A stretch of 64,000 bases of DNA from Psammoneis japonica (GCA_008632985.1 QPGO01000051.1:1-64000), one strand, 5' to 3'. Counted from the first letter of the stretch, positions 1 through 63,720 are shown. The notes: generated by a model from the sequence alone, not told the origin. Program-made: numbers and translations.

Positions 1-2689
1 ATTGAATCAATCATCGATCTATTTCATTGGTTGTTCAAACTGTAAGTGAAGACTTTAAGAGCCTACAATGAGAAGTGTGAGGGACACAATGAGGGGCAGC
101 AGAAGCATGCAGGAAGTGAGCAGGCATCGCGAAGTCTGCATGTAACACCGGCATCGTCTTACCATGTGTGTCCCGGGTCTCGCACAGACGCCCCATCGCG
201 GTTGATCCATCTGTCAATGATCACATGCATTGATCACATTGCTCACATCACAACATTGCAAACTGCACAATGGTCGATTGTTGTCAGTGTGACGTTGGCA
301 TCTTTCAGCAACATTTGCACAGCAGCACCGCACCAAAGTGCTCCCATCAAGGATGTCGTGTTCCAGGAGCTCCAGGTGGGACCTGGCAAAGCAGCACCTC
401 TGCTCTCAGCACAGAAGAGAGTTGGCTGTGTGTCATCTGGTCAGCGGGGCATCTCTTGAAGTTGCACGGGTGGTGTGAAGAAACAAGAGTGTGCACTCAA
501 TGAGCGCTGGAAACTGTCTGGGAAGCTTGGAGAGTGTTGAGATCTCGGCTCCTCCAGATGACGAAGCAGGCATCGAAGTGGATGCTGGAGTCTGGGCATC
601 AACTTTGAAGGGGGCAGTGTCAACAAGGCCCCAGCTGTCGCACCTCAGTTGGGTTCCTGGGCAGAAATGGAGGTGGTTGGCACCAACGGTGATGATGACA
701 GCATCTTTTTTGGCATTGAAAGCTGTGGCCATTGCTTTCAAAAGTGACTGTTGTGTCTCAGACATTGCCCGTGGCTTCTCTGGGCATGGGCTTAGAGAAA
801 GCAGCTTGATCTGTGAAGGGTCCAATGCGTTTCAGGTCTACGGCAGTGTTTGCCTGTGGCTTGATGACCTTGTCAATGAGCCAATGGTGCAAAATTGTGC
901 TGGCATTGTTGTGGAGACAGGGTGGTGCAAATCCATCTGGTGTGGCTGATGATGTGCCCAGGATGGCATCAGAGTGCATGCCATTCGGGCAAGCATGTGC
1001 ATCTTTGCATGCAGAGTTGAGGCTAAATTCAAAGAATGATGACATCTTTGTCTCAAATCAACAGCTTTGGTTGACTTGTTGGTCATGGCAGTGTGGTGCA
1101 AAAAATGCTGTGCAGAGCTCTGGTGTGTGCTCTGCAATGCCCTGTTGGCTGGAGCCACAGACAGTGGGAAAATTGGCAAGACGGAGGCAGTCATGTGGTG
1201 TTTTCTCAATGAAAAAAAAAGGAGCTCTGCAGCTGGCACAAACTTTGCTTTGCACTGGCACTTCAATGAGGAATGGCATGGTGACGAACAGACAGAGGGT
1301 CTGTCAGCACAATTCAATGCACACTGGGACAAAGATGATGACACGGTGCTGGTCAGAAAGAAAGCGAGCGGAAGCAAGAGAGGTCTGATGAGACCTTCTG
1401 CAATCTGTGTGTCCTTGTGTCTGTCCATTGGGTGTGTGACTGATGTGCATCACTGGCACACACTGCTCATGACTCAGTGGGCTGACAGGCAGGAAGATGA
1501 TGGCACAAAAGAAAAGCTTTTTTTCGACTTTGTTCTTGATGACAACAGCTGGCCACTGTGCCTTTTCCATGAGTTTGCATTTCACGGTTTCCTGCCTGGT
1601 GTCTTCTTTGAGAAGGTGACCAGCAAGCACTTTTGGTCTGCCTGAGTTTGCTCTCATTGCATTCTCAGATCATGAGCTTGTGTCACATCACCACTCAAAC
1701 ACAAACTGCCAGGGCAAGCACCCAGCTGGTTTGTGGCTTGCCTGTCACCCAAGTCAAGTGCTGGCAACATGGCAACAACACCAAGAAGCCTTGAAAAGGT
1801 CTAAAAACAAGTTGTCCAGGGACGAAGTGCAGCGTGATTGCATCAAATCTTTGGGCAGTGCTGCTGGTTTCTGAAGGGTGAAAGAGATTGGCATTTTGTC
1901 AATGATTGAAGATGACAACTCTGCAGGTTTGCACGATGAACTCAAGGCCAGTTTGCAACAACCAACGTTGAAAGGTCAACCTCAATCTGCGCCCCGTGCA
2001 ATCGCAGATCATCTTTGCACTCTTTGCCAGTGCAGTGCCATTTTGTTGGACTCTTGAGGGACAATGACAAGCTGTCGAACTTGTGACATTGGAAGATCCA
2101 ACAACATCATGTTTGTTGTGCCATCAAGGGCAAGTCCTCTTGCTGTCTGATGCGCTGGCGCTTCTTCTTTTCCGTTGCTTTGCTCCAATGGTGTGCTTTT
2201 CTTTTCCTTGAACACTTGTTGGCAATTGCAGGCAACAACACATTGCAGCTCTCAAGACTCTCTCCCTGCTTGCCATTCTGGCAGCCCCAACTCAGGCATG
2301 TCCAGCTTCATTTCACATTTTTGGTTCTTGTGAATTGGAGGAAAGCGAGCATCTCCAGTTTTTGGATTGACCCCCTTTTGCCACATGCAAAAAAGAAACT
2401 GCCATGTGGGAGCCGGGGAAGTGGCTGCATGTAGAAGCTCACCTTCAAGGTCAATTTTTGTCACAAGAAGGCCTGTGTTTGTGGAACATGCAATGGACTC
2501 AGTCACTTGATGGACACCAACTTCAATGAACGTTGGCTTTTTGACTTGATGGAGGGCAAGGAATTGAGCGTTGCCCAGGAAAATGGTGCCCCAGTCAACT
2601 CCAACAGAAGCAGGCTTCATTGACAGCATCACGATGGGCTCAATGTGGGTGAGATTCCTTGCAATCAAAAAGATGCTGTGAGCTTTTCC

Positions 2690-3300
2690 TGGAACCTTTT
2701 AACAAGGATGCCAAAATTGCTTGCAGCTGGTGGTGATCCGGGACTCTGGACCATCAACAATTTCCTCAGTGAGGAAGAGGTGGACAGGATGACAGAGTTG
2801 ATGCATGGGGTTGGTTGTGATCAAGGCATGTTTGGTCCATGTGCTGTCAGTGACCGAATCCCCAGTTCATGTTCATTGTGAGAGCAACACCAAGGTGTGC
2901 TTCAAGATCTCTCTGGAGAGCATTTGTGAAGGTCCTTGCCAGTTCTCCACTTGCAAACACGAGCCAGACCCCCAAAGATGCAACCTCAGTGGCCGAAATC
3001 AGGGCTGGGTTCAAGAGCTTGTGGTGAACTGAAGTTGAACTTGAAGAACACCTGCGACTCCAGCATGCTTTGAAAGGCAGTCCTCCTGCATCTGCCTTCA
3101 CAGCAATGACAACCAAGCTATCTTGCTGGTGTGCTCTGTCTCTCAGATGGTGACACACTGCTCTTCTTTCCAAATCTTGACATTTTGATCATCCCCAAGA
3201 AAGGGACAGCGGCAATGTTCCTCAGTTTGTGCAAGGATGGAAGTTGCAACCCCTGGCCAACCACTCAGATCAGGCCCATTCAGAAAGTGCTGGAGACTGC
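2690..3300 (+). pseudogene. Decayed prolyl 4-hydroxylase-like (2OG-Fe(II) oxygenase) remnant
   Basis: Fragments in different frames: LWTINNFLSEEEVDRM (cf. P4H 'hnFLSxeEcdxL') and DGDTLLFFPNLDILIIPKKGTAAMFLSLCKDG (cf. 'GGETxFP...vkPkkGdAlxF'). Confidence 0.55.
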
Positions 3301-4932
3301 ACCATGGCACTTTTTTTCTGTAAAGAAGAAGTCCTCGGAAGTGTGGTCTTGTTGGAGGTGGAAGTGCAGGAGAAAGTGCGAAGATCACTGTGGTTTGGTT
3401 CAGCATCACCGGCTGCATTGCCTGCAACAGCTGCATCACTCCCCGAGCTGTTTTTTGGCAGAACACCATGGTCAAGAAAAGGCTGCTGCCATGAAAACAA
3501 TGGGGTTGGCATGCCCAACATTCATGTGGGCAATCATTTGGCATGTTGACTCTTGGAGAACAGGAGATCTTGAAATGGCTTGCAAAACTTTGAGTCCAAT
3601 GACAAAGCATGTCCACCAGAACCAAAGCATGAAGAAACAATGAGATTTTGATGTGGAGAGGGGTCACAGTGGGCCCAGCATCTGCTCAGAGAAGTTGAGA
3701 TGATGGGGGGTGGACAAGGTTTGTTCCAAAGAACACAACTGGACAAAATTTGCAATTTCAACCTTTGGTCTCATGCTTTGTGTTGGAAATTGGTGCTGTG
3801 TTAAAAGCAGGCAGGAAATGCACACTGGCCACCTTCATTTGAGCAATGTGTCAAATGGCTTTTTTCTGTCTTAAGGTCCAACAATGTTGCCAAAAGCTGA
3901 CATGCTCACAACATGTGCAAGCATGAGAAGATGGAAAGCAAGACTCAGCAAGCCATTTTTCCAGCTTGAGTCACAGCCACCTTGGCAGCATCTCTGTCAC
4001 AGCAACCTTGGCCAAGGGCTCCAAGCTCCAAAGTGACAGCAACATGGAGCAAGCACTCCACAGAACCTGCAAATCATCCAGCTCCACAAGAATCAGAGTT
4101 GACAACAAGCACACATGCACTTGCTGCACAAACTGCTTTGCTGGTGAACAAAGCCAAGCTTCAGACTGCCACCCAGGAGCTCAAGTTTGTGGCTGCAGAT
4201 GTTGAGCCAACCAGCACTGCACTGGTGTGTTGGAAAAAATGAGGGCATTGTCAAAGTGCCAGCTGCAGCAAAAAACAAAATTGCCATGCTCCAGATTGTT
4301 GTCTTGCAGCAGCTGGCAAGGAGAAATTGGAATTTTGCATTGTGCACACAAGTCACTTTCTGAAGTGAGTGCTTGCATTGACTGCCATGGCCAGTCTCTT
4401 TCCAGAAAGAATGAAAAGTGCTCTGGAGCAAAATGAGAAAAAAGGAAGCTTGCTTCTCAAGTTGTGAACCTTGCTGAGTTGCAACTTGACAGCACCACCA
4501 CCTTGACCAACCAAAGCCAAGAGCAGGAGATTGGCAAAACAAAGAGCAACAGATCTGACACCTCAATGATGCTCTGGCACAAGAAGTGCAAGTTTCAAAT
4601 TAAACTCTGAGCATTGATCTCAGTCAGTTGTGGCTGCACAAAGTGCAGCTGCCAGTCATGTCAACCAATTGAATGAGCAGATTTGAGACTTCAGAGAGGA
4701 GAAAAGGAGCTGCAGGTGTGTGTGCAATGGGGGGTGCTGTTCTTTAGATTGAGTCATGGGGTGGTCTTTTCCAATCACAGTGCACCAGCATTGATGGTTT
4801 GCTGCACCACAATCCCATGGATGCATGAAGTGAGGTGCAGCACATTGCCACACTTGCATCTTTCCAACGTTGTCACATCCGCCGCACATGTTTGGGTGTT
4901 GATGGGAGCTGATGTGCAGACGTGTGCACAAC

Positions 4933-5185
4933 ACATGCATGACTTTGCATGTTTGAGCACCGTCATTCAGACAGCATTGTTGCCCTTTTTGTTGTGCACA
5001 AACAGGGCACATTTTCAAAGAATGTTGCAAACTTTTTGATGGCATTGTCTGGTGTCAACACATTGAACATGCATGACTTTGCATGTTTGAGCACCATCAT
5101 TCAGACAGCATTGTTGCCCTTTTTGTTGTGCACAAACAGGGCACATTTCCAAAGAATGTTGCAAACTTTTTGATGGCATTGTCTG
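4933..5185. repeat. Two-copy direct tandem repeat, period 134 bp
   Basis: acatgcatgactttgcatgtttgagcacc...tgatggcattgtctg at 4933-5051 and 5067-5185, about two mismatches. Confidence 0.95.
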
Positions 5186-5501
5186 TCATTCTGCACAACA
5201 AGTGTGGCACAGCAGCACACTGTCTTGATGCCAATTGGTGATCAGGGAATCACATCCTGGCATCAAACACAATCTCAACCAACCAGCCATGATGAATCCA
5301 GCAATGGCAGCATTGGAAATCACACCCAGTGGGTGCAGACAACTCCATGCTGTGACACCCAGTGCCAGGGGGAGATTCAAGAAATCTGGACGAAACCTCT
5401 GCCTCCAAGCGCGCGTTGCCTGATCGTACCGTACGCACTGTAGACCTCTAGATGCCCTCTTTTCGACTTCTTCAGTTCCCGGAACTATGACGTGACACGC
5501 A

Positions 5502-11697: not shown

Positions 11698-13700
11698 CTA
11701 TGTGAGATAGAACGCAGAGACTGCGTACACCATCCCGATCTTGAACTCTGCCATGTAACATCCGGCACCGCCAAGCATGCCGGGATCCCTAATTCTGAAT
11801 TTCCATGTGCCATTCTTGGCCATGTACTTCATGGTGCCACCACGCACGCCAGTGGCCTCCGAGGCGCCGTTTGATCCCAGCTTACTAACACGCACCAACT
11901 CCGGGCCACTTCCTTCATCATCCGTTTCTTCCGTGCATGAGTTCTCTACCTGAATCTTCAACACGAGTTTGCCGCCAGTGGCACTTGCTGCTTTCCCCTC
12001 CAAGAATGGGCTGCAAAGACGCTTCAAGCTCTTGCTTGGAACAGATGAATCAATCTCCACCCCACCCATTGGCCTCATGCTCTTTGTGGTCAGCTGGTTG
12101 GGAACCAAAGGGCAACTGTCGCAAGTGTCTCCAACGCCGTCGCCATCGCTGTCAGCCTGGTCAGGATTCAAAACCGAGGGGCAGTTGTCCCTGTCATCAA
12201 GAATGCCATCACTGTCAGCATCCCTGAGCTTTAACACAAAGAGACCGTGACCTCCATCGTGCCCCTTCATCATAAAAAAACAGCTCTTGATTCCAAGGCA
12301 TTAGATGGGACAGGCATGAAACAGAACCAATGACCACTTCTGAACTGCCAAGAGCACGATCATGTGCCCAAAGATCTTGCTGCTGTCCACTGTGAGCTTG
12401 GAAATGCAACTTTCCCCAAAAGGGTCTCTGACAACTTGGAGAAGAACCACCCCGACCGGGATTGACATCCTTTGTCATTTCTGTCCGGCGATGGGATCAT
12501 GCACCCACAGCTCTTCTCGATGCAAAAATCCACGGCCTTGAAGTGCAGCATTCCATCCATTGGCACGAAGTCACCTGGCAAAGAACTTCTTTGACCACAA
12601 CAGATGTCCTTCACCATCTTTGTTTCTCAAGTGGTGGGATCATGCACCCAAAGCTCCCATCCATGCACTCCATCAGTTGCAGAGACATGCAGCTTTCCAT
12701 TCGTTGGCACTAAACCACGAAGATAAAAACTGTGTTTGCCTGGCCTGATCTTGACCACATTTGTTTCGTTGTTGGTGGGATCATGCACCCAAAGCTCTTG
12801 TCCATGTGTTCCATCATCAGCAACGAAACACAGCTTTCCATCAAGTGGTGTGAGCCTGAATGGAGAAGAACCACGCCGGCCAGGATTGACATCCTCTGCC
12901 ATTTCTGTGCGCCCGCTGTTGGGATCATGCACCCAAAGCTCTGGTCCATGCATTCCATCATCAGCAACGAAATGAAAAATTCCATTCCCTGGGATCAATT
13001 CCCCCGGGCTGATGTCCTTGACCATCTTTGTTTCATTGTTGGCAGGACCGTGCACATCCAAAGCTCTCGTCCATGCAATCTGCGTTCGGCGGAGAAGTGC
13101 AGGCAGCTTTCCATCAACTGGCAGGAAACTTCCTGGATGAGAATCATGCCAACCGGGATTGACATCCTTTGTCATTTCTGTGCACCCGCCAATCAGATCA
13201 TGCACCCAAAGCTCTCGTTCATGCAGTCCATCACTGGCCGTAAAGAACAGCTTTCCATTCATTGGGATCAATTCCCCCATTTCAGAACTTGTCTCACCCG
13301 GCCCAATGTCCTTGACCATCTTTGTTTTGCAGTTGGTGGGATCATGCATCCAAAGCTCTTGTCCGTGCAATTTGTGGTCTGTGGAGAAATGCAGCTTTCC
13401 ATCAACCAGCGGCAAGTTTCTTGGACAAGAAGCAAGCCGACCAGGATTGACATCCTTGACCATCTTTGTTTTGTCAATGGTGGGATCATGCATCCAGAGC
13501 TCAGAGCTCTCATCCATGCCATCCATCATCAGCCACAAAGTGCAGCTTTCCACCCAGTGGAGTGAAGCTGCATGGAGAAGATTCACCTCCTCCACCTGGA
13601 TTGACATCTGCGACCATTCTGCAATTGCCGCTGATGTGATCATGTGCCCACAGCTCCCTCCCATGCATCTCTAAACATCTGCAGAAAAATGTGCTTTTCC
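11698..13700 (-). pseudogene. ELWxxDGT-type repeat (beta-propeller) protein with C-terminal thrombospondin type-3 Ca-binding repeat; 5' part decayed
   Basis: About 9-10 repeats of ~47 aa (HGxELWxHDPT...MVKDVNPG...GKL[H/C]F.ADDG) spread over several frames; [38 protein letters not shown] in ORF 11698..12273. Confidence 0.85.
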
Positions 13701-14079
13701 CTCCAGGGTGCAAACCAACACTCAACACATGCTTTTGAGCAGGCTTTTCATTCAGATGTCTTGCATGACATCATTGCTGGACACTTGCTCAAACACTGCA
13801 AAATTTTCTTGCAAGAGCCAGTCTCTAATTTGGAGCTGCAAGTCGTGTTTGATGGCTGCAAGCAACTGGACGGAACGACGCTCCTTCTCAATCACAAGGT
13901 CACAGGCTCCATGTTCTTTGTGGAGAACATCCCTCTGCAGACTGAGCTTGATTCAGAAACAATGACGGCTCTCAAGAGCAATGGCTTCTTGCAAAAGATT
14001 CAAAGCTCAAAGCACCCCACCTTGCCCAATGCAAAAAAAGTGTCTGTCACACTGGCTGATGATGGGAGCTCCTTGATCA

Positions 14080-14840
14080 AGTCACACCTGTGCAATTTCC
14101 AACAAAGAGTCCAACTCCTCCTGCAGCAACAAATGTGCCAACACGGGTGCTGACCAAACATCCCACATTGCCTCCATCGTGCACAAGCAGAGAGGTGTGC
14201 AAGGCTGAAAGTCAGGGCAGCAGCATTTTTGTTGATCAGGAATGCAGACCTCCCTTTGTGGAATGGCAAAACCTGCAATGCCTGTGCCACAGCAAGCAAT
14301 GGGAACACACTGCATGTTGTTGCATGTGGTGCTGGAACAATGTGGTCTCTCACATGTTGTCTGTTGCTTTTGGATGGTGTTGCCATGTGAATCAATCCAG
14401 CTGGGGTCACTGTCAGAATTCTGCGGCATGTCTCAACCCCTGAAATTAGAGCCTGAAATGAGTGAATGCTCCAAATGCATTTAAGGATGTTGTGGCAAGG
14501 AGCTCTGCTGTGCATGCATTCTCTCATTGCTTCAAAACAATCACGCAACTTCTTGGAACCGTTTGCAGCACAATCCACAGAAACCCAACATTTGGGATTT
14601 GTTGCATTCTTGTGTGGATGCAACCACAAATGTTGTGGGAATGAATCCTCTGTGATGATCTTTGGAAAGGAGCAACAAACTGGCTGTGATGGACTGTCGA
14701 AGCTTGTCAAAAGTGAGTGCTTGCAGAAAAGGGTCACACTGCTCTTTTGCACAATTGCAACCAATCACAACTGCAACGGTTTTCACATGTTTTGAAACTG
14801 CCACAATTTCTTCCTTCACAATCGTTTGACCTTGCATCTC
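14080..14840 (-). mobile_element. Possible decayed MULE-type transposase / SWIM zinc-finger remnant
   Basis: LLLLSKDHHRGFIPTTFVVASTQE resembles the MULE 'vdxxgxxxpvaf' segment; QQKCCCPDFQ...LCLC resembles a SWIM CxCxxF...C motif. Heavily mutated, tentative. Confidence 0.3.
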
Positions 14841-15149
14841 ACCGCCACAACAAAGTGCAACTCGCCTGCAGAAACTTTTGTGTCATTTGTTGTTTCCTCA
14901 TCACAAGAGCTGTGCTGTTGGGGCAAGCTGTTCCACACACTGCCTGCTGTTCTCCTGCTGCACACTGCATCCTCACTGTTGTTCCAATGCAAATTCAATG
15001 TCGGGTCTCTTGTTCTGCAACATGGCCAGGTTTTCAGCCAACAGCACATCAGCTTGCAGCCAACAAAGATTGGGCCGGCTTCAAACAAGAACAAGATTGA
15101 TGATGAACTCTTGAGGCAATGGTCCTTCATGATGCCTTTGCAGACCAAA

Positions 15150-15975
15150 CCAATTGTGCGATGCACAGGTGACACTCAAATGATCAACATTGTGAGAGAA
15201 AGAATGCAAGAAGAATCTGTGGTCTTGCCACAGCAGCCTCCATGGACCCAGCCCCAATGGACTCTTGATGAGTGCAGTGTCATTGAAGCAAAGGTCAGTT
15301 GTGCTTGGCAGAGCAGCAGACACTGCACTTTGTGAAACGAGGCAGTGCAAAACGATGACTCAAAACGACCCTCCTCACGCTAAAAAGGGCAGCCCTGCAT
15401 TGGACCCACAATGTTCTTGGGATGCCTTGATGCCACCAAACTCCAGCTCAGCTGCATTTGGGCACATCTGAACAAATGCAGAAAGGGATTGTGCATCATC
15501 CCATCAAGTTGATGTGTTGTTGTTGGGATCTGAAGCAGAAATTGCCAACTTTCGAATTTGTGCCAGTTGTCCAAAACAATGATTGACCGCAAATGCGTGA
15601 TTTTTCCACTCCGCTGATTGCAAGAGCAGCACAGTTTTCTCCAGAAGCATTGTTCCCAGTTGCTTTCCTGATGACATTACGGAAGGAGTCTGAAGTGCTC
15701 TTGTTGGTGAAGAAAATGTCAGCGATGCGTTCTTGGTTGAGCGATTCATTGTTGGGCACTTCATTGCACCCCCTGCCACAAACAGCCACTGTCTTTAAAT
15801 CATCCAAGGAAAGACAGGTGAATGTCTTTACCTTGCATTCCATTGGAAGACTGTCAAACACAGCAACAAAAGTGGTGTCTTCATCATCAACTTCATTGTT
15901 GTTGTCAAGACGCTGGCACTTGTGGCACTGGGTTTTGGCAGAAACATCCGGTGGCAACTTGCAAGTCATCATCAA
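15150..15975 (-). pseudogene. F-box protein pseudogene, copy 1
   Basis: FDSLPMECKVKTFTCLSLDDLKTVAVCGRGCNEV matches the F-box pattern (LPxExxxxIFxYLxxxDL); frameshifts downstream. Confidence 0.7.
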
Positions 15976-17132: not shown

Positions 17133-17223
17133 AGAACAAGGTGAGCATGTGGTCAGTGGGCATCTTCTGGCACCCGACTCATTGTGGTGGTGCTGCTTCT
17201 GCTTGAGCAAGCAAAAAGCCATC

Positions 17224-25478: not shown

Positions 25479-25565
25479 GCCATAACAGATTCCCATAATC
25501 ATGTGCTACTGTTCTCGTCGGCATACACTACTACTACTGCTTTCCCATCAATTATCGTCCTGTAC

Positions 25566-47589: not shown

Positions 47590-50500
47590 GTGATGAATTG
47601 TGGACAAGAACAACTCTCCAAGACCAATGCTTGCAGTGCCGGTCAGCACCTCCTCAACATCATCAAACCGCTCCTCGCCAGCATTAAACTCCAATTTCAC
47701 AGCATGGGTGCTGTCAAAACCAGGACACTTCTTCGTGCGAGTGGGGTGCCACCACCACCACCATGTGATTGAGTCAGCTTCATGCTCTCAAAGTCAGAGG
47801 AATCAAGTTTTGCCCAGCTGTCAATGCAGGGTTCTTTCAACGATCCAATCATCAAAAAATTGAGCACAATTGTGCAACACAGTCCTTTCCAAGGACTCCA
47901 TCTTGTTCTCCAACTCATCCTGCAGGAGGGATTCGCTCCAGTCTCCATCCCGCTCTTCTGATGACTGCAACTGCAGCGCAAGGTCAAACAAGACAATCAC
48001 TTGAAAGACAAAAAAGAACTGCTGTTGTTTGCCTGGAAGTTGTCAACACAAGCTTCAAACTTGCAACTGTTCTTGCAAACCAGATGGTTCACTCCAAAGA
48101 ATGAGACAAGCTGAAAAATGAGCGAGATTGGCAACAATCTGATCTGAGCACAAAGAGTCACCAAATCCACCACGTCATGATCTTCAACATCTTCTCTTCA
48201 ACACATTGGTCTCTCTTGAGGTCTGACATTCCCTTGGTTGCCTCTTTGCAGTCATCCTTCAAATCGGCAAAAAGCTGGCGTGCACCGTCCATTGTCAGAG
48301 CAGCTGATCATGTTGTCAAACAAGTGTGTCACACCATGAACACCCACTTTTCACAAAACACTCCACACAATCATGACAGAGTCTCTCTTTCTTGTCCTCA
48401 CTTCCCCAACCCCAGACCAGATCCATTGTCAAACCATTGATTGCTTTGGGAGTCAAGTCAAAGAGCTTCTTTTCTCTGCAGCACGACCACTCGCACGACT
48501 TCCATGCAGTCAGGTGAAAATTCACAGTGGAAGAATGACGCTGACTTCTTTGCATCACAAATGATGCTGTCATCATCCCTCATGAGTCCATGATGAGTCA
48601 TGATGATGTCAAGATTGGGGCTCTTGACAAGTGTTGTGAGGAGGGGGGTGCCTCATGCCCCACTCTTGTCCATGCCACATGGATGCAGACAAACATTTGA
48701 CTTGCCATGCTGGTCTTGAATGTCACTCTTGCTCAGGAGGGCCAACTGCAACTTGTTGCCCAATGATCTGGAAATGCACCTGTCCTTGATGCACTCTCCA
48801 TCACCAGGCAGCTGTGGACAATGGTGTGCCACACACCTTGCCTTGAGGCTCAGCTTCCAACAATTTGCCAATGTTCTTCTTTTTGGTCTTGGGAGCTTCA
48901 TTGGCCAATCTCTTAATTTCACACATGTGTCTCCAATCGTTGCAGTGGAGAACATTGGTGCAGCAGTGGACACATGCTCCACTGTCTCAGAGCTCCATTG
49001 TGCCATTTCTCCATGCACTTGCATCAACAACTTGTGTCCAATGTCACATTTGGGTCTTCTGCCCTCATTTCCTTGATGGAGTCCAACACCTGCTGCAAAT
49101 CCAGGGTGTCTTGGTGGAGGTGTGGATTGAGAGTCAGTGTCTTCCAGCTTCCAGTCACTCTTGTTCCACCTCTTCAGCTCTTCCATCACTGCTCTGCAAT
49201 CTTCAACCACTGTTTCTTACATTCTTGGGTTGCTCAGACCTGGGAGTCTCTCTTGACAAACTGGCCAACAGCTCAGTGGCCATGCCTTTGTGACATCGTG
49301 TCACAACACATGCAGAGCTCACATGAATCATTGTTGAAGTGGTTGATGTTCATTTGCAGCCACAGATTGTGGCTGGATGACCCATTCAGTTCAGTGCCCT
49401 GCTTGCCAGGTTGCAGAGGGATTTTTCACCCACATGTGTCAGAGTTCTTGTCTGATGACATAAAGAACAGGAAATGCTCCTTCCATGTGCAAAGTTGACA
49501 ACCCATGCAATGGCTTGTTTGAACTTTCAAAACTTTTTGCCTCGCAGTGGCTCAGTCATCAAGTCTCCAAGCACGTCATCAGCAGGACAGGCCCAGCATT
49601 GCACTCTTAGATTGCCTTCTTCATCTGGTTGGCAACAAAGAAATGCTGAATGCCGAGTGCTCTCAACCACTTCTTGCTGGCACTTTTGCTCCCATGGCTC
49701 CAACAACTTGGACTTAAAGGACTTGTTTGCCTTTTTCCAGGTTCACACATTGCCTGCACAGGTTGGGATCAATGCTCACCAGCATGTCAACCAACACTCC
49801 TGTGATCTTTGCCACAATCCATCTGGCCATTGTCTGCATGGGTGCATTTGGCACATCTGTGCTCATGACATTGCACTTGGCATCAACAATTGCCATCACA
49901 AATGTCCCTTCTGAGGATGCTGGTGGGGTGGCTGACTCATTTTTGCCTGGCCATTCTTGAGTTGGTTTCCCACCGCAACCCATTCTTTGCCCTTTGGTGC
50001 AACCATCATGTTTCTTGACTGGGAACATCAAGGCTGCTGTCGCCTTGGTCCTTTTAGTCAGAGTCATGTCCTTGACTGATGCTGGTGCAAAGCACACTTG
50101 GTCATGCAGTCATGTTTCATTTCTTTCGCTGAGGTGTCATGCCCCCTCTGGCCAAAGAATGCTTTGAGGCCTTCACGCAGCAGATGCTGCTGGGCAAATG
50201 AAATGCCCTCACCTGGTCAGAGTTGGCAGTCAGTCTTGCACACAAAGGGTGCCATTTCCACTGCTGTCTCCACATCACAGTTGACACCATCCTCTTGATT
50301 GGGGCTCAAGTTTGTTTTTTAAATGACGGCAGTGCTTGAGCTTGTTTTGCTCTTGTTGAACTTTGTTTTCTTTGTGCTTGCTTGATTTCATGTTCAAGAA
50401 GGATGATGCAGCACAGCTTGTGCTGCTCCTGCTTGCTCAGCCAGGCATGTCACTTGTCTCTTTCCCATCTGTTGTCTTCATTGGGTTGGTCAGCATCTTG

Positions 50501-53500
50501 TGATGCTGCAGCTTTTTTTGTGTTCCTCATCAACATCTTGATGATCTTCATTTTCTTCATTTCCACAGTCTCTGTCTTGTGCTTCTTGATTGCTGTGCTG
50601 TTGACTGGGACTGAACAATTTCTTCCACAGCCAGAATCTCATTTGCTTCTGCATGCTCATCATTGCTTTGAGTCTGCTTCTTTTTTGTGATCTTCATCAT
50701 CAGACTCGGTCACACAGTTGACATTGTTGTGATCATCTTTGCAACTGCCCTCCTTTCTGTTGCTTTCATTGCTGTCACTTTTGTGGTTGTCTGCTCCTGC
50801 AGTCCACTCAGCATCTTGTGGATTGTCTCAACATTTGCACGTGAATTTAAATTCCTTGAGATGCCTTGTTGTTTGATGGCCATCCTCTCAACTGCCTGCA
50901 CATGCACATCAGTCAGGGGTGCAAGGTGCACTTGCAGGGTTTCAACAGCTTGCCCATGCGCAGGTTCACAGCACAGTGTCCACCCTTGGGCAGATCAAAA
51001 TGTGGTTGCAGGCACATGCTGTCAACACCACGTGCATCCACAGTGTTTGTCAGGTTGTTCTCAATGCATGAGAAATCACAAATTTCCCAAACTGCTGAGC
51101 TGGAAGTGTTTGCAGTGATTGTTCCTTCATTGCACAACAGTGTGTGGAATGTGAGTGTCAGAAATCCCTTCATTCTTTGAGCACATGTTTGCACATGGCA
51201 GCATTCTTGATGACAGCTTGCTTGCACCACATCAACTTGGGTGTCATCTTGCATGGCACATGGTGTGTGGTGGCTTGAGTTTGCTCCTTGATGATCTGCA
51301 TGCTCAGCTCAACTTCAAGCACATGGTCTTTTGCATCATGGAAATCAGTTCCAGATTTCTTGAACTCAGAATCACACTCAACAAAGTCAATCTGCTTGAA
51401 CAGGGCTGTGTTGTTCTGTTGGAGAATCATGTCCAGCACTTCATGAATGTCATCATGTTTCTTGGACCTCAGTCTCATTCTTGATTGGCACTTGATTGTC
51501 TTGTCCCCATGCTTCCATGGTGTCAATGCAGAGGATCATGACTTTTTCTGCTTCTCGCATGTCTCAGGTGGTGTGACCATCATGCTGTTCCTCTCATGGG
51601 AATGGCACCATGCATGCTTGGCCTTGCCTTTTGCTGCACGTCTGTTGGTGGACCCAAAATGGCTCCCATCCTGTCCACCCCATCTCCCAGGCATGGTGCA
51701 GCACTTGTCCAAGGTGTCCACTCCTGTGCTGGTGGATGGCACAACCTTGACCTTCGTCAGATGCACATTGTTCACTGGTCTCTGGCTTGCTGCCATGCTG
51801 AGGGTTGTAGAGCCATTGGCAAGGATGAGTTCATCTGACTCAGTTCCCACACTGGCTTGGCTCAGGATCATCTCTGGACTCTCTCTTCATCCAGCTGGCA
51901 TCTGTGCCATGTGCACTTCTTGCTGCTTTGGCTTTGGCTTGATCTGTCAGATCTGGCAGCATCAGTGCTTGCACTGTTGCTGTCCATGGATGAGTTGTCT
52001 TCATCTTGTGTCAGTGGATGACTCTGTCCCTTGGCACCCAGTTTCTTCCTCTGGTGTTCCTGAGCCATTCATTGTGCACAATCTTGTTCTTGCACTTGCA
52101 GCCAGGGGACTTGTGGTTCAGCTCACCACAGGAGCAGCAGCACACCACATGGTTGTCTTGGTTGCCTGTCTGTGCATGACTTCAGTCAGTTCTTCATGTT
52201 GTTGGACCCATCATCACTTCTCTTGTGGCTGTCTCATTCCTGTTGTTTGAGCGCGCATTGCTCCTCTTGCCATGACATTTTCAAAGATTGTCATCTTTTG
52301 GATGATCCAGCAGTGCATCCATTGCCTTGTCTGGGGTCTTTGGATGCACGTCCTTCCCCAGGCTGCAATCTCTCATAAAACTCTTCTTCAAGCTCTTGTG
52401 AAAGCAATCATTGCTGTTCTCCACAAACTGCTCTTCTCCATGAATGGGTGCATCATTCATGCCTTGTGCGCGCTGCTGCCTTTGGGTCAAACTGGACAAC
52501 TTGATGTGCTCAATGAACCCATCCAGCATTTTTCTTCCCAGACTGTCACTTGTGGCAACTCACTTTTTGTTCTTTTGAATCTTGACAGGTGGTCATTCAG
52601 TGATTTGCACTCTTGTTGTTTCACTTCCAGCATGTGCTTCAGCAAGTCAAACAAAAGGAGGGGCTGATTCATCTTGAGCAGTGTCTCTGCCAGATCATCA
52701 TCCCCCCCAATGCTTGAGTGATTGGGGTTGCCTTGCACTCTCTGCTTCATCAGCTTGGCAAAGCAGTCATCCAGGATCTTGGTGAATGCAGCAATCTTGT
52801 TCTCTTTGAGCTTTTTCACTTTTTTGTTGTGGTCATGGAGCTTGATCTTGCGCTGGTGTTCCAGCTCTTTTTCTTCTTGATGTCTCATCCACATCTCAGT
52901 GTGCGGCAGTCTGTCTTTGATTTGTTGGTTGGCAACTCTGACTTGTGTGCATCTGATGCAGGTTTCTTTTCAATGAAATCTTTGCACTTCACATCTTCTA
53001 AGGATCTTGCCAGATGCAAACCTTGGTCACATTCCTTTTGAATGCAACTGACAACCTTTGCCTTCATCCTTGATGCCTCCACATGTTGAACTGTGAGCAT
53101 TGCTGTTTGAAGTGACAACCAACTTCATCTCAGTCAGGCTGAAAGCTTTTCTTCAGGTTGGTCTTGTTGTTGTTGTTGGAAGACTTGTGACCTCTGTCAC
53201 CTCTGCCTTGGTTGCATTGTTGGCCTCTGCCACTTGCTCTGCATCCTCCTTTGCTGCTCACAATGCAGAGTTTGAACATTGGATGAAACTGTGTGAAGGC
53301 AGTTGAAACAAGTGCCAGATGATGTGCTTGTGACTCTTTGGAGCAAATGTCAAACCAGCAAGTCCTTGTTGTCAAAAGGAAGTCCCACAAGGCTTCCTGT
53401 GCTGCTGGTTGCACTTGCTCTCACTGGCTGCTTTGGTGGCTGTGATTTGTCTGGAAGTCATCAACACAAACTTCAAACTGCCTCACAACATGACAGGTGC

Positions 53501-55340
53501 CCACAAGTGATGCAAAATGCAATTCTCACAAACCAAATGACTCACTCCAAAGAGCAACACAAACTGCTGAAAGGTGAGTGCTGAGATCAGTTGCAACACA
53601 ATCCAAATGCAAGCAGTTGTGATCTGGGTGCTCCAACACAAACACAAATGCATGCACAGGCACATTTGACTCAAAGCTCTGGAAGAAAGAGCTGGGCTTT
53701 GACCTGCTCTTTTGCGCAAGAGAGGAGGTTTGGTCTTGCAAGCACACAAGTGATGTGCACTGCCCGTGGCACTCAATCTTTGAAGCTTTGCAGCTTCAAC
53801 AACCAAACTTTTTTGGTGGTTGGTTTGCACCTGATGTCAGCCTTCACTGCAAGCCCACAAATCATGAGTCAACAACCTCATGTCCAGGTGCTGTGATGGC
53901 CTGTCAACATGGGCTGAATTTGAGTTGAAAATGGAAGGTCATCTTTCTTGTGCAAGCCATGGAGTGAGGGCACATTGTGCTGAACAAAGCAAAATTTTCT
54001 CATGCGCAATCACAATTTTGAAAGCACCTGCACCTTGCACAACAAAAATCAAGCTTTTTGTCATTTTTCAGATTCGCCAAAAAAGTGCTGACACAACCAA
54101 AATTGTCCCACGCAGTTGTGTGCTTTTGTCATTTCAAAATCCTTTGACATTGCCATGACATCATCAAGCAGCTGAATTGAAAAGTTTGCCCCAAGAAATG
54201 GCTGATGCTCACAGCACTGGCTGCATGCAGTGCCAGCATGCCAAGTTTCAAGAAAGTGGGATGGGGTCAACTGTGCCAAACAGGGAGCAGCAACACTGCC
54301 CACAAGTCATTTGATTTGCACAAAGGAAAAGAGGCAAATGATTTGAAAGGTGGCTCCTCCAGTCAAATGCTTGATCGCAGCCACACAAAATGCTCATGCT
54401 GTCATTTTCTCGGTTTGTGTCATTGGAAATTCTAACTGTTTCTGTGTCACCCACATGACACCCAAACGCTTCCTCTTAAAGTGTGCTCTTGTTTTGCATT
54501 TTTGTCAATGACACATCAGTTGTGCATGGCTCTAAAGATTTTTCTAACAAAATGTTTTACAAAAAGCAGCTTGTCAGCTGCAAAGCAGCAAACACGTGTG
54601 TTTGCAATTGCAAAATGCCAATTGCATTTGCCAACAAACCAGTTTGCAAACTGCTTTGCAAATGAGCACAAAGCAAGTGTGCACACCCCACACAGCTTCC
54701 CCCTGTCAGGGGAAGCAGAGGGGGTGCTGGCCTGCACTGAGGTGTGACAAAAAATTTTTTGAATGAAGAGCACAAAACAGCCCCACTCTGCCATCATGTG
54801 TTGTCCATTGTGAGATTTGTGTGCATTTGAAGTGCAAGCCATTCAAGCTCAAATGTGAACCCTGTTTGCAAACTTCCATGGCAAACTGCAAACACTGGTT
54901 GTGCACAATGCACCAAATGAAATCTCCAGTGTGGGCCAATCTTCCAAGGGCCCAGCTGCTGCACTTGAAGCCCATGCCATCAGCACCTTGGCGTGAGCAT
55001 GTTTCTTTTGCCCAAGAAACAAGTCTGCAACACAGGTGGGCAATGAGCCACTTGCCATCAAGAGACAACAGAGATGCACAGACCATTGTCAACCTGTTGT
55101 TGCTTGTGGGATTTTTTGGATGCTTGGTTTCATTCAAAAGGGAGTGAAGAACACACCACGGTGCCATGATGAAGAAAGCAGATTGCAGCAGAGTGGGGCA
55201 GATGTAGACAGGAAACCATCAGCTGTTGTTCATCCTTGGGGTTCATCGGTGAACAACACACATGGTTTTCTGTACATGACATGTGACACCATGAGAGATG
55301 TTGCATCATTTTCTGGCACAAAAGCTGTGGAATGTGTGAT
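47590..55340. other. TpA/CpG-depleted hypermutated domain 3 (most saturated)
   Basis: Roughly 20 TA by eye in ~7.7 kb, very few CG; normal composition resumes at ~55340-55440. Confidence 0.92.
49490..53260 (-). mobile_element. Decayed diatom-type Ty1/copia retrotransposon body (gag-PR-IN-RT-RH), internally deleted
   Basis: Gag-like KENKIAAFTKILDDCFAKLMKQRVQGNPNH; integrase-like IDFVECDSEF and DSMCLQP...GGHCAVNLRMGK; RT KKHDGCTKG...GKPTQEW...SATP...IVDAKCNVMSTDVPNA; RNase H end ...LGDLMTEPLRGKKF. Order is copia-type; LTRs not identified. Confidence 0.85.
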
Positions 55341-55621
55341 TCTACAAAATACAAGAGTCACGGAATTCCACGGAGAATTCGTCGGTGAACAATGCGCATG
55401 CTAACTCTAGTGTTTGTCTAAAAGGTCACACAATGTATGTACCGAAACCTTGAAGAGCCATCGTCATTCAATGGATGCCGAATGAGACTGACTCGTTGTG
55501 ACGATGCAGGATCCGCAGATGAAGGAGAAGCCATGCGATCGACAAGAGTATTGAGTCGGTGTTGTCGCTACCATATGTTGCAACATGTATATTCCTTACT
55601 ATTCACCTTGCCTACTGTGCT

Positions 55622-56963
55622 CTAGTATACAAAGTCTAGTTCATCGGCAGGATGAAGCGGATCCTCTTGACATTGACTGTATCGACAAGCATTCCATACC
55701 CACAAGTTGGCACCTGTAGGAAACAAACGGGACAACAAAGAAATAATGCATAAGTTACTGAAACAACACATCCGACTCGAGTTGCAAACAAAACCACTTA
55801 CCCCACTTGGTTCCCTTGAGAACCGGTCCAGCTCCATGAATAGACAGGGGATCCAACCTGCCGTCGGGCGTCTGACTGTAAAACAGCACCGCGTCTCCCT
55901 TTTTCGGTTTGACGGAAAACTTATTGTAACAATCCCTCGTCAGCCTTGCTTCCCACGAGTCCTCCTTGAGATTGGCTTTCTTGATTAACTCTTCCAACTC
56001 TTCGGCAGGCGGCGGCTCGGCCCCACCGAGGCGTTCGGCCAATTCCAGGGGTTCCTTGAGACGCGGAGCTCGGGGAAAGCATGTTTGACCACCGTGTTCG
56101 GGAGAACTGAGATACAAAAAGACCGTGGCAAAGCGATTGGAACCGCCCTTGGCGGGGTCCCAATTATGATCGGTCGACTGATAGGCCGGAAAGTAATCTT
56201 CGTGAGCGACATAGGCTTGTCCCAATTCATACCTCAAGACTTGAATCCCATCCGCCAGGCTTGGTTCAAAACGGGGCATGCGGAGCAATTCAAAAGATCG
56301 CAGTTTAATAGCATGTGCCGTGGGTGTCGAAATATCAAACGCATTCATACTAGTCCTTGTTTTCAAAACGTCATCGCGTCCGCCTTGGTTCCAACTCTTG
56401 TGTGTCCCTCCCGTCGATTGCGCCATTTTGTACGGATTCTCTTCTGCCGTGGCATATTCAATAAGAGCGTCGGTTTCCTCGTCCGTCATGAAATCGTGAA
56501 CATAAAAGGCCCGAGGCGAGTGATTCAAGACTTCCAATTCAATGGGTTTCTTGGTCTTGGGGGAAATGACTCCGGTAACAATGCGGTGCCCCGGCTTAAA
56601 GGCTGGATACACAAAGTGCGTTCCCGGACGAGTCGGGCCTTCAAACAAAACGTCTGTTGTAATGTTGGAAAGGTCCTGTTTAAAGCCCTGTTCGTTGTAA
56701 TACGACTTATCAGGATCCAACTCGGACAAATTCATAACTTTTCCGTCCTTGCCGGTACCATCGCCGCCGCCATTGGGAAACACAGTGACTGTCTGTGACG
56801 GACATGATTCAGATTCGTCAGAGCAAGAAGAAGTCGTTTCAGTCGCTAGAGACAGAGGCAGAACTGCAAGTAGCAAGCTTAGAGGCAACATGTTGATACG
56901 GTCAGCAGCCTGAGACAGCGGCAGCGCCGCGAGCAACAAGGAGAGACGCATCTTCACGGTCAT
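55622..56963 (-). CDS. Prolyl 4-hydroxylase alpha-like 2OG-Fe(II) dioxygenase; intron 55714-55801
   Basis: PRAFYVHDFMT, RTS, IQVLRYELGQAYVAHEDYF, NRFATVFLYLS, GGQTCFP, KPKKGDAVLFYS, SIHGAGPVLKGTKW|GANLWVWN; signal peptide. Confidence 0.92.
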
Positions 56964-57269
56964 TGTCGCTCCACAAAATGAGAACTGTTGCGTTGAATCG
57001 AAGCGATCTTTTCGCTGATGGCTTGCAGGTTGCAGTGGGAACATTGATTTGCAAAATACCTGAAGATGTTGAATAAAACAAAAATTATTTGAATATTAGC
57101 CCTTGAAGATTATATTAAAATATCAAAAATTCGGTCTTGCATGCGCCCCACATCCCAGTCGCTCTACGCTCTCAGAATATATAAAAAAAATGAGGTCGAC
57201 CATGGCGACATTGCGCTCGTTATTTTATGAACCTGATGCGCTCTGTCACAAGGGAACAAATAATCACAA

Positions 57270-60524: not shown

Positions 60525-60899
60525 GATTTCAGAAACGATGCTGTTGGGAAGAACTCCAGGCAAAGGTGTATGAAGGGGATTGATATGTGTGAGAGTGTGT
60601 TGCTCGGTTGACTGAGTGAGGCGATCAGTTGAATTGCTCTTTTTCTCTCGAATGTGAATGTCATTGTCGACGGTAGCGGATGATGATGATGATTCTTCGC
60701 GATTCGCGATCTTTCATGAGGGGTCCCGGCCGAGATCCCGCAGTGGTGGTCTGTCTGTACGACATTCCTACACAAATTATGTGCTGACGTCTTTCCATAC
60801 GATCTAACTACAATACAATAAGATACGCGTCTGTCCTTGTCACAAGCACGATCTCAGATTATTTCAAGATTGAAGATGTTCCTCATTCTACCCCATTGT

Positions 60900-63720
60900 T
60901 GTCGCTAATGACCATGTGGTCCGCAAGAAGACACATGCGAAAGGATGGAGGCAATGAAGAATCCAACAATCAACATGTCAATGCGTCTGGGGACGAGGTG
61001 CCGTGCGGTGTCAAGACACGACCTTTTCAGGTTGAATGCCCGGATGGTTGGTTCAATGAGCACCGCAGCATGATTGGACCAGCGAATTGGATCGTGCACA
61101 ATCCATGCTGACGCGCCTTGTCGACCGTTTTGCTTGAATTTCTCCATGCTAGGGAGGTTATCAGAGCCACACAATCTATCCCACTTTGCACGCTTGTTGC
61201 GTTTCTTCTGCACTTTGCTGCACTCAAGTCAAACTCTCGAAATCCGCGCAGCTCCAGCTCTGTGTCTGCGGCAGCAGAGCTGCGACAATCGCAGCATCAC
61301 CTCACTTGTGTCATGCAGCATCAAAATGTCTTCTGATTCCCATGGCATTGAACAAATCAGGTTGTGGCATCCTGCTCCTGGGGACTGTCCGCTGTGGCGC
61401 CGCTTCCAGATTCCGGTCGCACAGCTGGTGGCAGGGAAGAGCACGTGTGGAGCCACTCTGGATCAATCATTGCTGCCATGTTCTGCTCTCAAGCTTTCAC
61501 CCAACCAAGCAACAGCAGATGACCGTCTCACACTTTCACTTCTCGCAGCAACTGCGCGACTTTTGCTGTTGGTCACCCCATCTTCCACGCTGTTCGAGCT
61601 CTCACCACAGCCAATTCCCCATTCTCCTCTGTCTCACCAAGGCTTCCACTCTGATCTCCCAAGGAGGAGGATGACAAATGAGATCTCTTTGGCCACACGT
61701 TCAGCTCCTTCGGTCAAAATCCTCAGTTGGGCCTTGTCCTTGTTGCAGAACTCAACATGTGTTGGAACCGTGTGGAATTGAAAAAACACCAAGAAGAGAC
61801 AAGAAACAACCGCAAACAGAAACAAGGCTTGGTTCTTGGCCCCACTCAACCACACGCGGCTTCCCAAAACTGCAAACAAATGAACCAGCATCCCGGCCTG
61901 GACAAAGCACGTCCCAATGAAAAGAGACGTCCCAATCACATTGGCTCGTGTTTGCCAAACCAGGTTGTCAGAACAGTGATGAAGAAGAAGTGCCACAAAG
62001 AGGCCGACCTCGTAGCTGATCATGAAGCTGAGGGTGAAGTTCGCCTTGAAAAAGAAGACCGATTTTGTCAACCCTGCTGCCACAATCAGAGCAAACACCA
62101 TCAAGTGATGAAAGAGGAGCCTTGAGGTCTGTTTGCTGAATGTGAAGCATCCCAGTGGCGCTGAGAAAATCCTCCGAGCACAGACGGGGGTCTTTGATGT
62201 TGTCAAAGTTCAGAATGGCAGAGAATGCAAAGGACGCCACACCAGCTGGCATGGTTTCGCCGCAAAAGACAATCCAGGCATGAATCGTCGTTCAACCATG
62301 ATGCCAACGAAAAACTCAACATTGTCTGCACTCGCACAAAGTTCCTTCAGTGCCCTTGTTGCCTCTGATGAAGCTCTGAAGTCTTCAAAGCTCTCCAGTC
62401 GAGGGAGATGGAAATGCTCCCGATGGTCATTGAAACCTTGCATCCCTTGAGTTTGCTCATCCTGGATCGTTTGAACTGCGACCTCCTTTGGACAAAAAGG
62501 AACATTGAACGCTTCGATGCTCCCCATGGGAGTGCAATGGAAGGCTCACAAAAAGTCGGCGGGATGATGTTGGGAGTGCATTTCAGGCTTCCAAAGAAAG
62601 TCCAGCCAGGGGCCCTGTGCTCTCTAACTTTCAAACTCAGATTTTCTTGCCACGACTTGTCTGCAAGTTGTGCAGTTTCCCGCCAAAATCCTCAATCCGT
62701 TGGGCCGCGCCTCTTGCACTGCTGCTCATTCTTTTGAAACACTTGCCTGTCCATGGAATGTGATGATGCTGTGGCCTCTTAAAGCCAACAAACCCAAGCA
62801 AGATTGCAGTGACACTCCAGCAGTTAGAAGGGCAAAGGAAGGCCTCCTGCTCTGCAGCCACCAAGAGGAGCACCACATCATGTGTCAAGAAGTTGGTGAC
62901 TTGCTGCTGATGCAAGTGGCTTTCTTGGATGTTGGATGCTGACTGGGCTGTTTTTTGGTGTGACAAACATGCGACAAAAGTCGACACATGATGCGCTCCA
63001 GCCGAGTTTCTTCAGCCCCTGAAAAAACCTGTGTGGCCTGCTCTGAGCCATGAGCCACATGCAGTGACTTGCAAAGCACAGCAAAACAACACACAGGTCC
63101 ATTGCCGGTGGCTCAATGTGCGCCGCGACCTGCAAGCAGCGCGTCCCATTGATGTGCAGCTGCGACGGCCCAAACCCGGGTGGCGCCCCCCCACATGCAT
63201 TTGACAGAGTGTCTCATCATGATGCTGCCATGATCTAAAATTGGTGGTTGTCAATTGGTGATTGTGCATCAATGACTGCATGAGCAGCTGAAACTCTGGT
63301 GCACAAGGCAGAATTTGCTGAGGTCGCTGTGTGAAAAAAGAGCTGCTCCACATTGTGACGTGGGCCCACAGAATTCCATGTGCAAGCCCCGCAGTGTGAC
63401 AATTTGGTCAATGGACCACCTGTCTTCAATGTCCAAAGCTTGACATTTGGCATTTTTTCAAATCTGCCTGCCGACGCCACTCTTTTGAGACACGTTTGAG
63501 GGTGCTGCTGGTGGCTGCAAAAAATGCCAAAAGTTGTTGAGTTGATTTTCCAACAATTGCGCCACAAAATGACACACAAAATGTTGCCAAAGCTATGCAG
63601 AAATGTGAGAACATGACATGAGGCACATGACAAAAACTTCTGTGTCACAGCCCAGTGCTGCCAAGGCATTACGTGTCAGCAAAATCACAGCAGCTGATGA
63701 TTTTTTTCAGGATTGCACCA
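60900..63720. other. TpA-depleted domain 4 (CpG only partly lost)
   Basis: TA nearly absent from ~61190 to ~63660 while many CG remain; TA-rich again from ~63745. Confidence 0.85.
60905..63350 (-). pseudogene. Decayed heme peroxidase-cyclooxygenase family gene followed by a multi-pass membrane region
   Basis: QGFNDHREHFHLPRLESFEDF...ALKELCASADNVEFFVGIMVE matches the PGHS/alpha-DOX pattern 'FNeYRxxFxL....FEel...LxxLYgdvdxvexyxG' with Tyr->His/Cys; hydrophobic ORF 61634..62206 downstream; multiple frameshifts. Confidence 0.7.

Follow-up and report, generated by a model that had tools for sequence, protein, structure and literature searches.

Within a 64,000-bp stretch of DNA from Psammoneis japonica (GCA_008632985.1 QPGO01000051.1:1-64000), analysed over its full length and referred to below as the window, we found four blocks, D1 to D4, from which the dinucleotide TpA has been almost completely erased and CpG depleted, and in which TpG and CpA have become abundant (Table 1). 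The changes run from TpA to TpG or CpA, are specific for the dinucleotide, affect both strands, took place in situ and end at borders that ignore the limits of genes and duplications. It is very probable that the blocks are inactive DNA that was rewritten in place by two dinucleotide-specific transition processes. The TpA process is most readily interpreted as being of the type described in the chlorarachniophyte Bigelowiella natans, here in a second, distant lineage.

The blocks were called from 1-kb sliding windows and from runs devoid of TA. Together they cover 21,746 bp, or 34% of the window, and contain 62 TpA where ~815 would be expected from the rate in the other 42,254 bp (3.75% of dinucleotides). 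In the 1-kb windows of the blocks the observed/expected ratio of TpA was 0.00-0.10, compared with ~0.55 elsewhere, and the ratios of TpG and CpA were mostly 1.5-2.4. Runs of 200-1400 bp without any TA were, within the window, almost confined to D1-D4. The non-block DNA showed ratios of 0.55 for TpA, 1.00 for CpG, 1.18 for TpG and 1.14 for CpA, and none of its 1-kb windows combined a TpA ratio <0.2 with a TpG + CpA ratio >1.4. Four TpA-poor runs of 2.7-7.5 kb qualify as clusters by the cut-offs of the B. natans preprint discussed below (at least 3 consecutive 1-kb windows, TpA <=0.43, CpA + TpG >=1.52). An initial annotation of this DNA had described four TpA-poor domains; these are real, and the limits that we re-called lie within about 100 bp of those given there, namely 200-5385, 11960-18150, 47590-55340 and 60900-63720. 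Its description of CpG as variably depleted and of TpG and CpA as enriched was likewise accurate (CpG 0.12-0.54, TpG/CpA about 1.5-2.0 in the blocks). Expressed as per cent of all dinucleotides, the blocks differed from the rest of the window by -3.46 for TA, -4.09 for CG, +3.97 for CA and +3.64 for TG; the summed loss of TA and CG (7.55%) balances the gain of TG and CA (7.61%). Since the loss of TpA and the loss of CpG cancel each other in GC content, which was 0.47-0.51 in the blocks and 0.478 in the rest of the window, plots of GC would miss the blocks, as had been predicted.

The direction of the changes was read from a tandem duplication at the right end of D2. We took the unmutated part of copy B (18166-19604) as ancestral and compared it with mutated copy A (16084-17223). 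Only 2 of the 35 TpA of copy B were kept in copy A, 15 had become TG and 10 CA, and of its 45 CpG 14 were kept, with 16 changed to TG and 7 to CA. The remaining dinucleotides were kept in 54-88% of cases; the apparent losses of AT, GT and AC are TpA events read in the overlapping dinucleotide (e.g. TAT to TGT). Transitions from A to G had occurred at 15 of 31 TpA adenines and at 15 of 193 other adenines (odds ratio 11, p=1.7e-7), and transitions from T to C at 10 of 32 TpA thymines and 11 of 196 other thymines (odds ratio 7.6, p=9e-5), an excess at TpA over other A/T contexts of 6- to 11-fold. C to T changes were found at 14/41 CpG cytosines compared with 6/126 other cytosines (p=5e-6). The initial annotation had postulated a second process, A to G or T to C at TpA, acting beside CpG decay, and had named polarised spectra lacking a TpA excess as its refutation; the excess in this pair speaks for the postulated process.

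Both strands were mutated, as indicated by the equal gains of TG and CA: in every 500-bp bin the difference between TG and CA counts was no larger than in the rest of the window. Strand-coordinated clustering of events was not detected in the polarised pair (runs test, 21 runs observed and 20.7 expected). Copies that both lie within a block differ most by CA/TG swaps, which shows that the mutation happened in place. If each copy mutates independently, a TA or CG of the ancestor is expected to end up frequently as TG in one of them and as CA in the other. Such swaps were the commonest adjacent double difference, both between the mutated parts of the two tandem copies (16 of 48; 15251-16080 compared with 17308-18106) and between the internal ELWxxDGT repeats of the D2 pseudogene (10/67, 12/51 and 6/36). 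The unmutated tandem repeats in the open reading frame (ORF) of copy B showed a single double difference in total, a CA/TG swap. Swaps of TG and CA were also observed in contigs paralogous to D3, at 51001/51002 and 51026/51027.

The few TpA left in the blocks, 62 by block coordinates or 66 when those touching a block edge are counted, were unevenly distributed over sequence contexts. Compared with TpA outside the blocks, TTAA was enriched 7.3-fold, CTAA 4.3-fold and TTAG 2.9-fold, and none of the residual TpA in the blocks was found at ATAT, GTAT, ATAC or ATAG. Measured against TG and CA precursors with the same flanks, the enrichment was 3.5-fold for TTAA and 2.8-fold for CTAA/TTAG, with no survivors among 1133 sites at ATAT, ATAC/GTAT and GTAC. 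From these skewed contexts, the mutator seems to disfavour TpA with a T on the 5' side or an A on the 3' side. TpA is depleted more deeply and more evenly than CpG (in D4, 0.05 and 0.54), which indicates that the TpA process is the faster one, and the two processes are probably separate. We considered a single deaminase acting on TpA and CpG and rejected it: the target bases lie on opposite sides of the two dinucleotides, and the depth of loss varies from block to block. Selection against TA, as a target site of nucleases or transposons, was also rejected, the blocks being pseudogenes with frameshifts.

The consequences of TpA erasure for coding capacity were visible in the ELWxxDGT-repeat pseudogene in which D2 begins; the final ~250 bp of this pseudogene (11698-11947) fall beyond the block and are unmutated. 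Inside the block, an open frame on the minus strand (12627-13667) matched TIGR04534 with six repeats (E=1.7e-72), and a TSP_3 match was located at ~12156-12222. That frame contains one tyrosine in 346 residues, compared with 2.6% in 150 homologs, and is enriched in cysteine (2.0% vs 0.3%), histidine (6.4% vs 1.1%) and methionine (4.6% vs 1.0%). At a repeat column where the homologs carry Y (0.37), F (0.31) or L (0.25), and C and H together at no more than 0.01, the units in the window read H, F, H, C and H. Loss of tyrosine with gain of histidine and cysteine is the expectation from the change of TAY to CAY or TGY. Since DNA free of TA cannot encode tyrosine, frames of this kind cannot be functional genes.

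We also examined where the blocks end. The right border of D1 at 5427 is abrupt, with TA per 100 bp rising from 0 to 7; at the other block edges the transition extends over 200-300 bp, and the right edge of D4 is soft, reaching ~63700. Borders of CpG loss coincided with those of TpA loss. D2 begins inside the pseudogene and ends inside copy B, at ~18150-18250, ~250 bp upstream of the start of an open 351-codon frame (18458-19513) carried by the unmutated part of that copy. Elsewhere, 340-550 bp separate the ends of the blocks from the adjoining long ORFs (47179, 55755 and 60563). The adjoining ORFs look intact, and because the borders track them and not sequence units, the borders argue for targeting by chromatin state over targeting by homology or foreignness. 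To the right of D3, a contig of the sequencing run X2 skips 88 nt with GT..AG ends (55712-55799, minus strand), and X2 thus behaves like cDNA; this spliced contig begins at 55396, 190 bp from the block. No X2 contigs covered D3, and none covered the neighbouring gene at 45383-47179 either. Among the runs listed as containing 46001-56000, none was of RNA. The skipped intron belongs to the 3' end of a gene for a 2OG-Fe(II) oxygenase (ORF 55755-57044, PF13640), which adjoins D3.

Table 1. Mutated blocks of the window and the features within or across them (dinucleotide values are observed/expected ratios).
Feature	Coordinates	Strand	Remarks
Block D1	161-5427		TpA-erased, CpG-poor, TpG/CpA-rich; no recognisable gene; TA 12/349 = 0.03, CG 0.21, TG 1.78, CA 1.88
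Block D2	11948-18218		Repeat-protein pseudogene, tandem copy A and upstream part of copy B; TA 26/432 = 0.06, CG 0.39, TG 1.73, CA 1.61
Block D3	47686-55205		Belongs to a dispersed repeat family; possible decayed retroelement; TA 16/518 = 0.03, CG 0.12, TG 1.80, CA 1.99
Block D4	60907-63594		TpA-erased, CpG half depleted; haem-peroxidase fragment; TA 8/163 = 0.05, CG 0.54, TG 1.78, CA 1.46
ELWxxDGT-repeat/thrombospondin-type-3 pseudogene	11698-13670	-	At least 4 frames; ORF pieces in differing frames
Tandem copy A	15251-17223	+	~2-kb duplication, wholly in D2, mutated; 68-86% identity to copy B (blastn)
Tandem copy B	17308-19604	+	First ~850 bp mutated; remainder with normal TpA and CpG
CCHC zinc-knuckle-like motif	52098-52139	-	Weak evidence for a gag remnant
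Animal-type haem peroxidase fragment	62281-62479	-	PF03098, E=6.6e-08; residues 507-572 of minus frame 60803-63997

Taken together, we propose that the blocks are inactive islands, formed by a dispersed repeat, by pseudogenes and by a dead tandem duplicate, on which two processes have acted. The dominant and faster one has converted TpA to TpG or CpA (A to G on either strand) almost to completion, affects both strands about equally and stops short of the adjoining intact-looking ORFs. The second would be ordinary decay of CpG to TpG or CpA, most likely by deamination of 5-methylcytosine in methylated silent DNA. Transposons of diatoms are methylated through DNMT5 (PMC9998398), and the CpG component resembles known 5-methylcytosine decay in that CpG is lost to TpG and CpA within silent islands, with genes keeping a CpG ratio of ~1.0. 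Deamination of 5-methylcytosine cannot, however, remove TpA, and the loss of TpA here exceeds that of CpG. Targeting may follow the silent or methylated state of chromatin, not sequence homology. By analogy with B. natans, the chemistry could be enzymatic: a deaminase, ADAT2/TadA-like or of another type, would act on the adenine of 5'-TpA-3' in DNA.

In B. natans, a member of Rhizaria, hypermutation of TpA to TpG or CpA was shown in mutation-accumulation lines (Mettrop et al., bioRxiv 10.64898/2026.01.13.699255). As reported there, an integrated giant virus and a virophage received 231 of the 302 new mutations, and all but one of these were A to G or T to C, those all at TpA; mutations arose at ~6e-7 per site per generation, a rate that exceeds the genome average about 1000-fold, and 124 clusters depleted of TpA and enriched in CpA + TpG were mapped (10.64898/2026.01.13.699255). 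Common to that system and the window are the regional change of TpA to TpG or CpA on both strands and its direction towards GC, against the usual mutation bias. The initial annotation had seen here a candidate undescribed genome-defence system and knew of no named pathway with the signature; beside this preprint, the word undescribed no longer stands. Four features of the blocks are new relative to it. Erasure is nearly complete, with TpA ratios of 0.03-0.06 compared with 0.45 in the B. natans giant-virus region (cut-off <=0.43). CpG has decayed within the same limits, so that GC plots do not reveal the signature, and the main text of the preprint is silent on this, containing none of the words 'CpG', 'diatom' and 'stramenopile' (10.64898/2026.01.13.699255). 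Where B. natans has an integrated giant virus and a virophage as targets, the window has a repeat, pseudogenes of cellular type and a dead duplicate, and the borders follow adjoining intact-looking ORFs, not sequence units. The two systems also differ in that the B. natans rate was measured de novo, whereas the process here is known from its footprint in the sequence, and in their hosts, a chlorarachniophyte in one case and, in the other, DNA of which two genes have their nearest named relatives in diatoms. No report of the signature in diatoms was found in a literature search that yielded one preprint overall and that lay outside subscription journals.

Enzymes of the ADAT2/TadA and ADAR families convert A to inosine, which is read as G, at adenines that follow U or T, their normal substrates being tRNA or double-stranded RNA. 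This preference for a preceding U or T matches the TpA context observed here. A thymine-directed lesion at TpA has to be considered in place of adenine deamination, for example 5-hydroxymethyluracil (5hmU) or 5-formyluracil made by a TET/JBP-type dioxygenase and mispairing with G. The 5hmU of dinoflagellates prefers TpA, and 5-formyluracil causes T to C changes; a paper on the TpA preference of dinoflagellate 5hmU was not found in our literature search. A to G and T to C are one event seen from opposite strands, all sequence results fit both chemistries and, since TpA is its own reverse complement, the sequence cannot separate the two. We nevertheless regard a thymine lesion as rather unlikely. 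The sole published proposal for the signature is an ADAT2-like DNA adenine deaminase, which Mettrop et al. put forward by analogy with amphioxus ADAT2 (10.64898/2026.01.13.699255), and amphioxus ADAT2 is reported to act on DNA, deaminating A as well as C (PMC10354150).

The D2 borders also bear on the possibility that the same in-place TpA hypermutation is triggered by sequence duplication, as in repeat-induced point mutation (RIP) of fungi. Fungal RIP changes CpA to TpA, so that TpA rises and CpA/TpG and GC fall, and it follows duplicated sequence. The blocks resemble it in being regional, transition-only, dinucleotide-specific and sharp-edged islands, and RIP destroys repeated and mobile DNA; they are unlike it in that TpA falls to 0.03-0.06, CpA/TpG stand at 1.5-2.0 and GC is unchanged. 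In favour of a duplication trigger, D2 contains a tandem duplication and internal ELWxxDGT repeats, the D3 family is multi-copy, and the corresponding segments 15251-16080 and 17308-18106 are both mutated. RIP, however, mutates both duplicates, whereas the part of copy B at 18166-19604, which is equally homologous to copy A, was spared and has normal TpA and CpG including its non-coding flanks. The last ~250 bp of the pseudogene were spared as well, and no in-window repeats were found for D1 and D4 besides a 119-bp tandem in D1. A duplication trigger is thus improbable as the rule behind these blocks, for which we prefer targeting by chromatin state.

Several known systems edit invading nucleic acids, and the blocks could have been edited before integration, as viral DNA or as retroelement RNA or cDNA in the manner of ADAR or APOBEC, or could be foreign DNA that was TA-poor from the beginning. 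AID and APOBEC3 are cytosine deaminases that act in TC, CC or WRC contexts, leave strand-coordinated clusters and serve in the host restriction of retroelements and viruses. The likeness of our case to AID/APOBEC3 would lie in host-driven hypermutation of invading DNA by deamination; the target here is TpA, and the strand clustering typical of them was not found. Some very sharp borders, such as that at 5427, and the dispersed, repeated nature of D3, together with its one gag-like knuckle motif, fit such an origin. Editing of a single RNA or cDNA strand, though, predicts a gain of either TG or CA, and the symmetric gains found here contradict ADAR-type RNA editing followed by reverse transcription. 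One-strand change confined to an element, the mark of ADAR or APOBEC, was not what we observed: TG was about equal to CA per 500 bp, and pseudogenes that are not elements are included. The borders, moreover, cut a host-type pseudogene and a tandem duplication, the CA/TG swaps between the tandem copies must postdate the duplication, and a pseudogene of a cellular repeat family has lost its tyrosine codons. Editing before integration, or a foreign origin of DNA already poor in TA, is on these grounds highly improbable compared with rewriting of resident DNA.

To characterize the content of the blocks we used six-frame Pfam scans, motif searches and X1, a public sequencing run. D3 belongs to a dispersed repeat: among 203 X1 contigs matching 46001-56000, 128 are 90-95% alike, and the summed X1 depth in D3 reaches up to ~5 times the depth of the flanks. 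No Pfam family of reverse transcriptase, integrase or gag was detected at E<=0.01 in six frames of all four blocks, and relaxing the threshold to E<=10 for the D3 minus strand brought up none of the three either, the only match being AP5B1_C at chance level. Searching all four blocks in six frames for the pattern C..C....H....C gave the one zinc-knuckle match listed in Table 1, which may be due to chance, as the translations are rich in cysteine and histidine. Scans for motifs of reverse transcriptase, protease and integrase, with Y allowed to change to C or H, returned nothing besides this match and uninformative HHCC-type matches in Cys/His-rich frames. The six-frame Pfam scans of all blocks yielded TSP_3 and An_peroxidase only, viral and transposon families being absent, and D1 contained no Pfam family in any of the six frames. 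No long direct repeats were found flanking D1 or D3. A true element could be masked by the heavy mutation. The initial annotation had described the domains as containing only decayed sequence; pseudogenes and a dead duplicate were confirmed, and the label copia was not, with no such domains detected in these scans and no long repeats flanking D1 or D3. In D1 we observed a 119-bp tandem duplication (4933-5185, 98% identity); as its two copies are already TA-free, it postdates most of the hypermutation.

It is hardly credible that TA and CG are really present and were lost through errors of base calling or polishing on heavily modified DNA: although X1, the only DNA run containing the stretch, is possibly the source sample of the assembly, and the assembly technology and library type are unrecorded, X1 contigs reproduce D3 with 2-10 differences per piece (>99.6% agreement) at an exact 31-letter-word depth of 56-60 in D3 and both flanks, a strand-symmetric miscall at palindromic TpA would give conflicting strands and not a clean TG or CA, and the frameshifts, transversions and 14-32% paralog divergence in the blocks show that they are truly decayed. 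The check that had been suggested against such an artefact, amplified short reads, was answered in part: the X1 contigs are TA-free as well, but X1 is not certainly independent or amplified.

Comparison of the window with X1, which covered 46001-56000, gave 55 differences, 40 of which are listed. Among the listed differences, 27 single-base differences lie in D3 at positions where the sole X1 contig differs, and none in the 2.5 kb of flanking DNA (p=6e-4). Eleven of these 27 exchange CG with TG or CA, and four exchange TA with TG or CA; again among the listed differences, variation was ~25 times more frequent at the remaining TA and CG sites of the window than elsewhere. The differences in D3 are compatible with ongoing action of the process or with alleles that it has left behind. 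At flank position 47438 the window and X1 differ by a 4-base insertion.

Several points weigh against our reading of the blocks as silent DNA rewritten by a TpA-specific process beside CpG decay, or against parts of it. The polarised sample is small, consisting of one pair, ~0.9 kb and 44 diagnostic events, and its polarisation presumes that copy B has retained the ancestral state. In that pair, plus-strand events outnumbered minus-strand events by 29 to 15, a marginal difference (p=0.049), and G to A changes at CpG showed no excess (5/41 vs 11/125, a small sample). Given its possible origin from the source sample, the agreement of X1 is not fully independent proof against a base-calling artefact. 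A foreign or mobile origin could be demonstrated for no block beyond the D3 repeat family, and the process, which may serve as a defence against mobile or foreign DNA, could also be a by-product of some chromatin state. No 1-kb window with TpA <0.2 and TG + CA >1.4 was detected in 236 kb from 29 loci of other eukaryotes; these loci are metagenome contigs of mixed eukaryotes that encode relatives of the helicase of the window, and since they are short and gene-rich, this negative result says little about repeats in other diatoms.

Apart from fungal RIP and the APOBEC/AID system of animals, hardly any process is known that directs hypermutation to a cell's own chromosome, and the 2026 preprint on B. 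natans is the one report that we found of a TpA-specific form running from AT to GC. A saturated footprint in a diatom would make the B. natans type of process older or wider than a single lineage, and would mean that it acts on ordinary dead genes and duplicates, not on viruses alone, alongside the decay of methylated CpG. As a tentative extension, which we hold to be possible rather than probable, diatoms, and perhaps all stramenopiles, alveolates and rhizarians or still more lineages, may have a DNA-editing defence, guided by chromatin, which attacks the adenine of TpA in silenced DNA and which, together with deamination of 5-methylcytosine, erases TpA and CpG from any heterochromatic sequence, even from cellular pseudogenes, being constitutive and saturated in the species studied here. 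If this were true, silent DNA would be made untranslatable, with no tyrosine codon left, at constant GC, and the constant GC would explain how the signature has escaped composition plots. Any assembly can be scanned for a TpA ratio <0.1 with doubled TpG/CpA and unchanged GC. Islands of this kind defeat homology-based annotation of transposons and genes and bias measures of the mutation spectrum and of neutral divergence; where a genome lacks epigenomic data, they may indicate the position of heterochromatin. As diatoms include genetically tractable species, the question of the enzyme is testable.

The genes of the window are long open frames with few short introns. For two of them the nearest named relatives are diatoms: the best relatives of the formate dehydrogenase are from Pseudictyota dubia (81%) and Attheya (79%), and those of an ASCC3-like helicase from Amphora (59%) and Mayamaea (58%). 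None of the window proteins tested had an identical protein in a collection of 5.8 billion proteins, and the matches of the helicase in the protein atlas were broad eukaryotic families only. The formate dehydrogenase gene (22745-24472, minus strand) is listed with a frame that starts at an upstream TTG and is ~170 codons longer than the relatives of 400-440 residues. Its bacterial relatives reach up to 74% identity, which indicates that the family is closely common to bacteria and stramenopiles.

Two further ORFs on the plus strand have unusual features. The frame at 18458-19513 in copy B includes five tandem 108-bp units (18829-19388, 94-97% identity), and its product resembles a low-complexity coiled-coil, with weak and probably spurious Pfam matches. 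For the 1362-codon ORF at 39298-43386, whose only recognisable domain is a C-terminal PH domain, the collection of 5.8 billion proteins, searched over the length range of 749-2384 residues, contained no relatives with E<=0.001. Upstream of and at the start of this ORF lies a CpG-rich patch (38001-39500, observed/expected 1.5-1.6), the opposite of the composition of the blocks.

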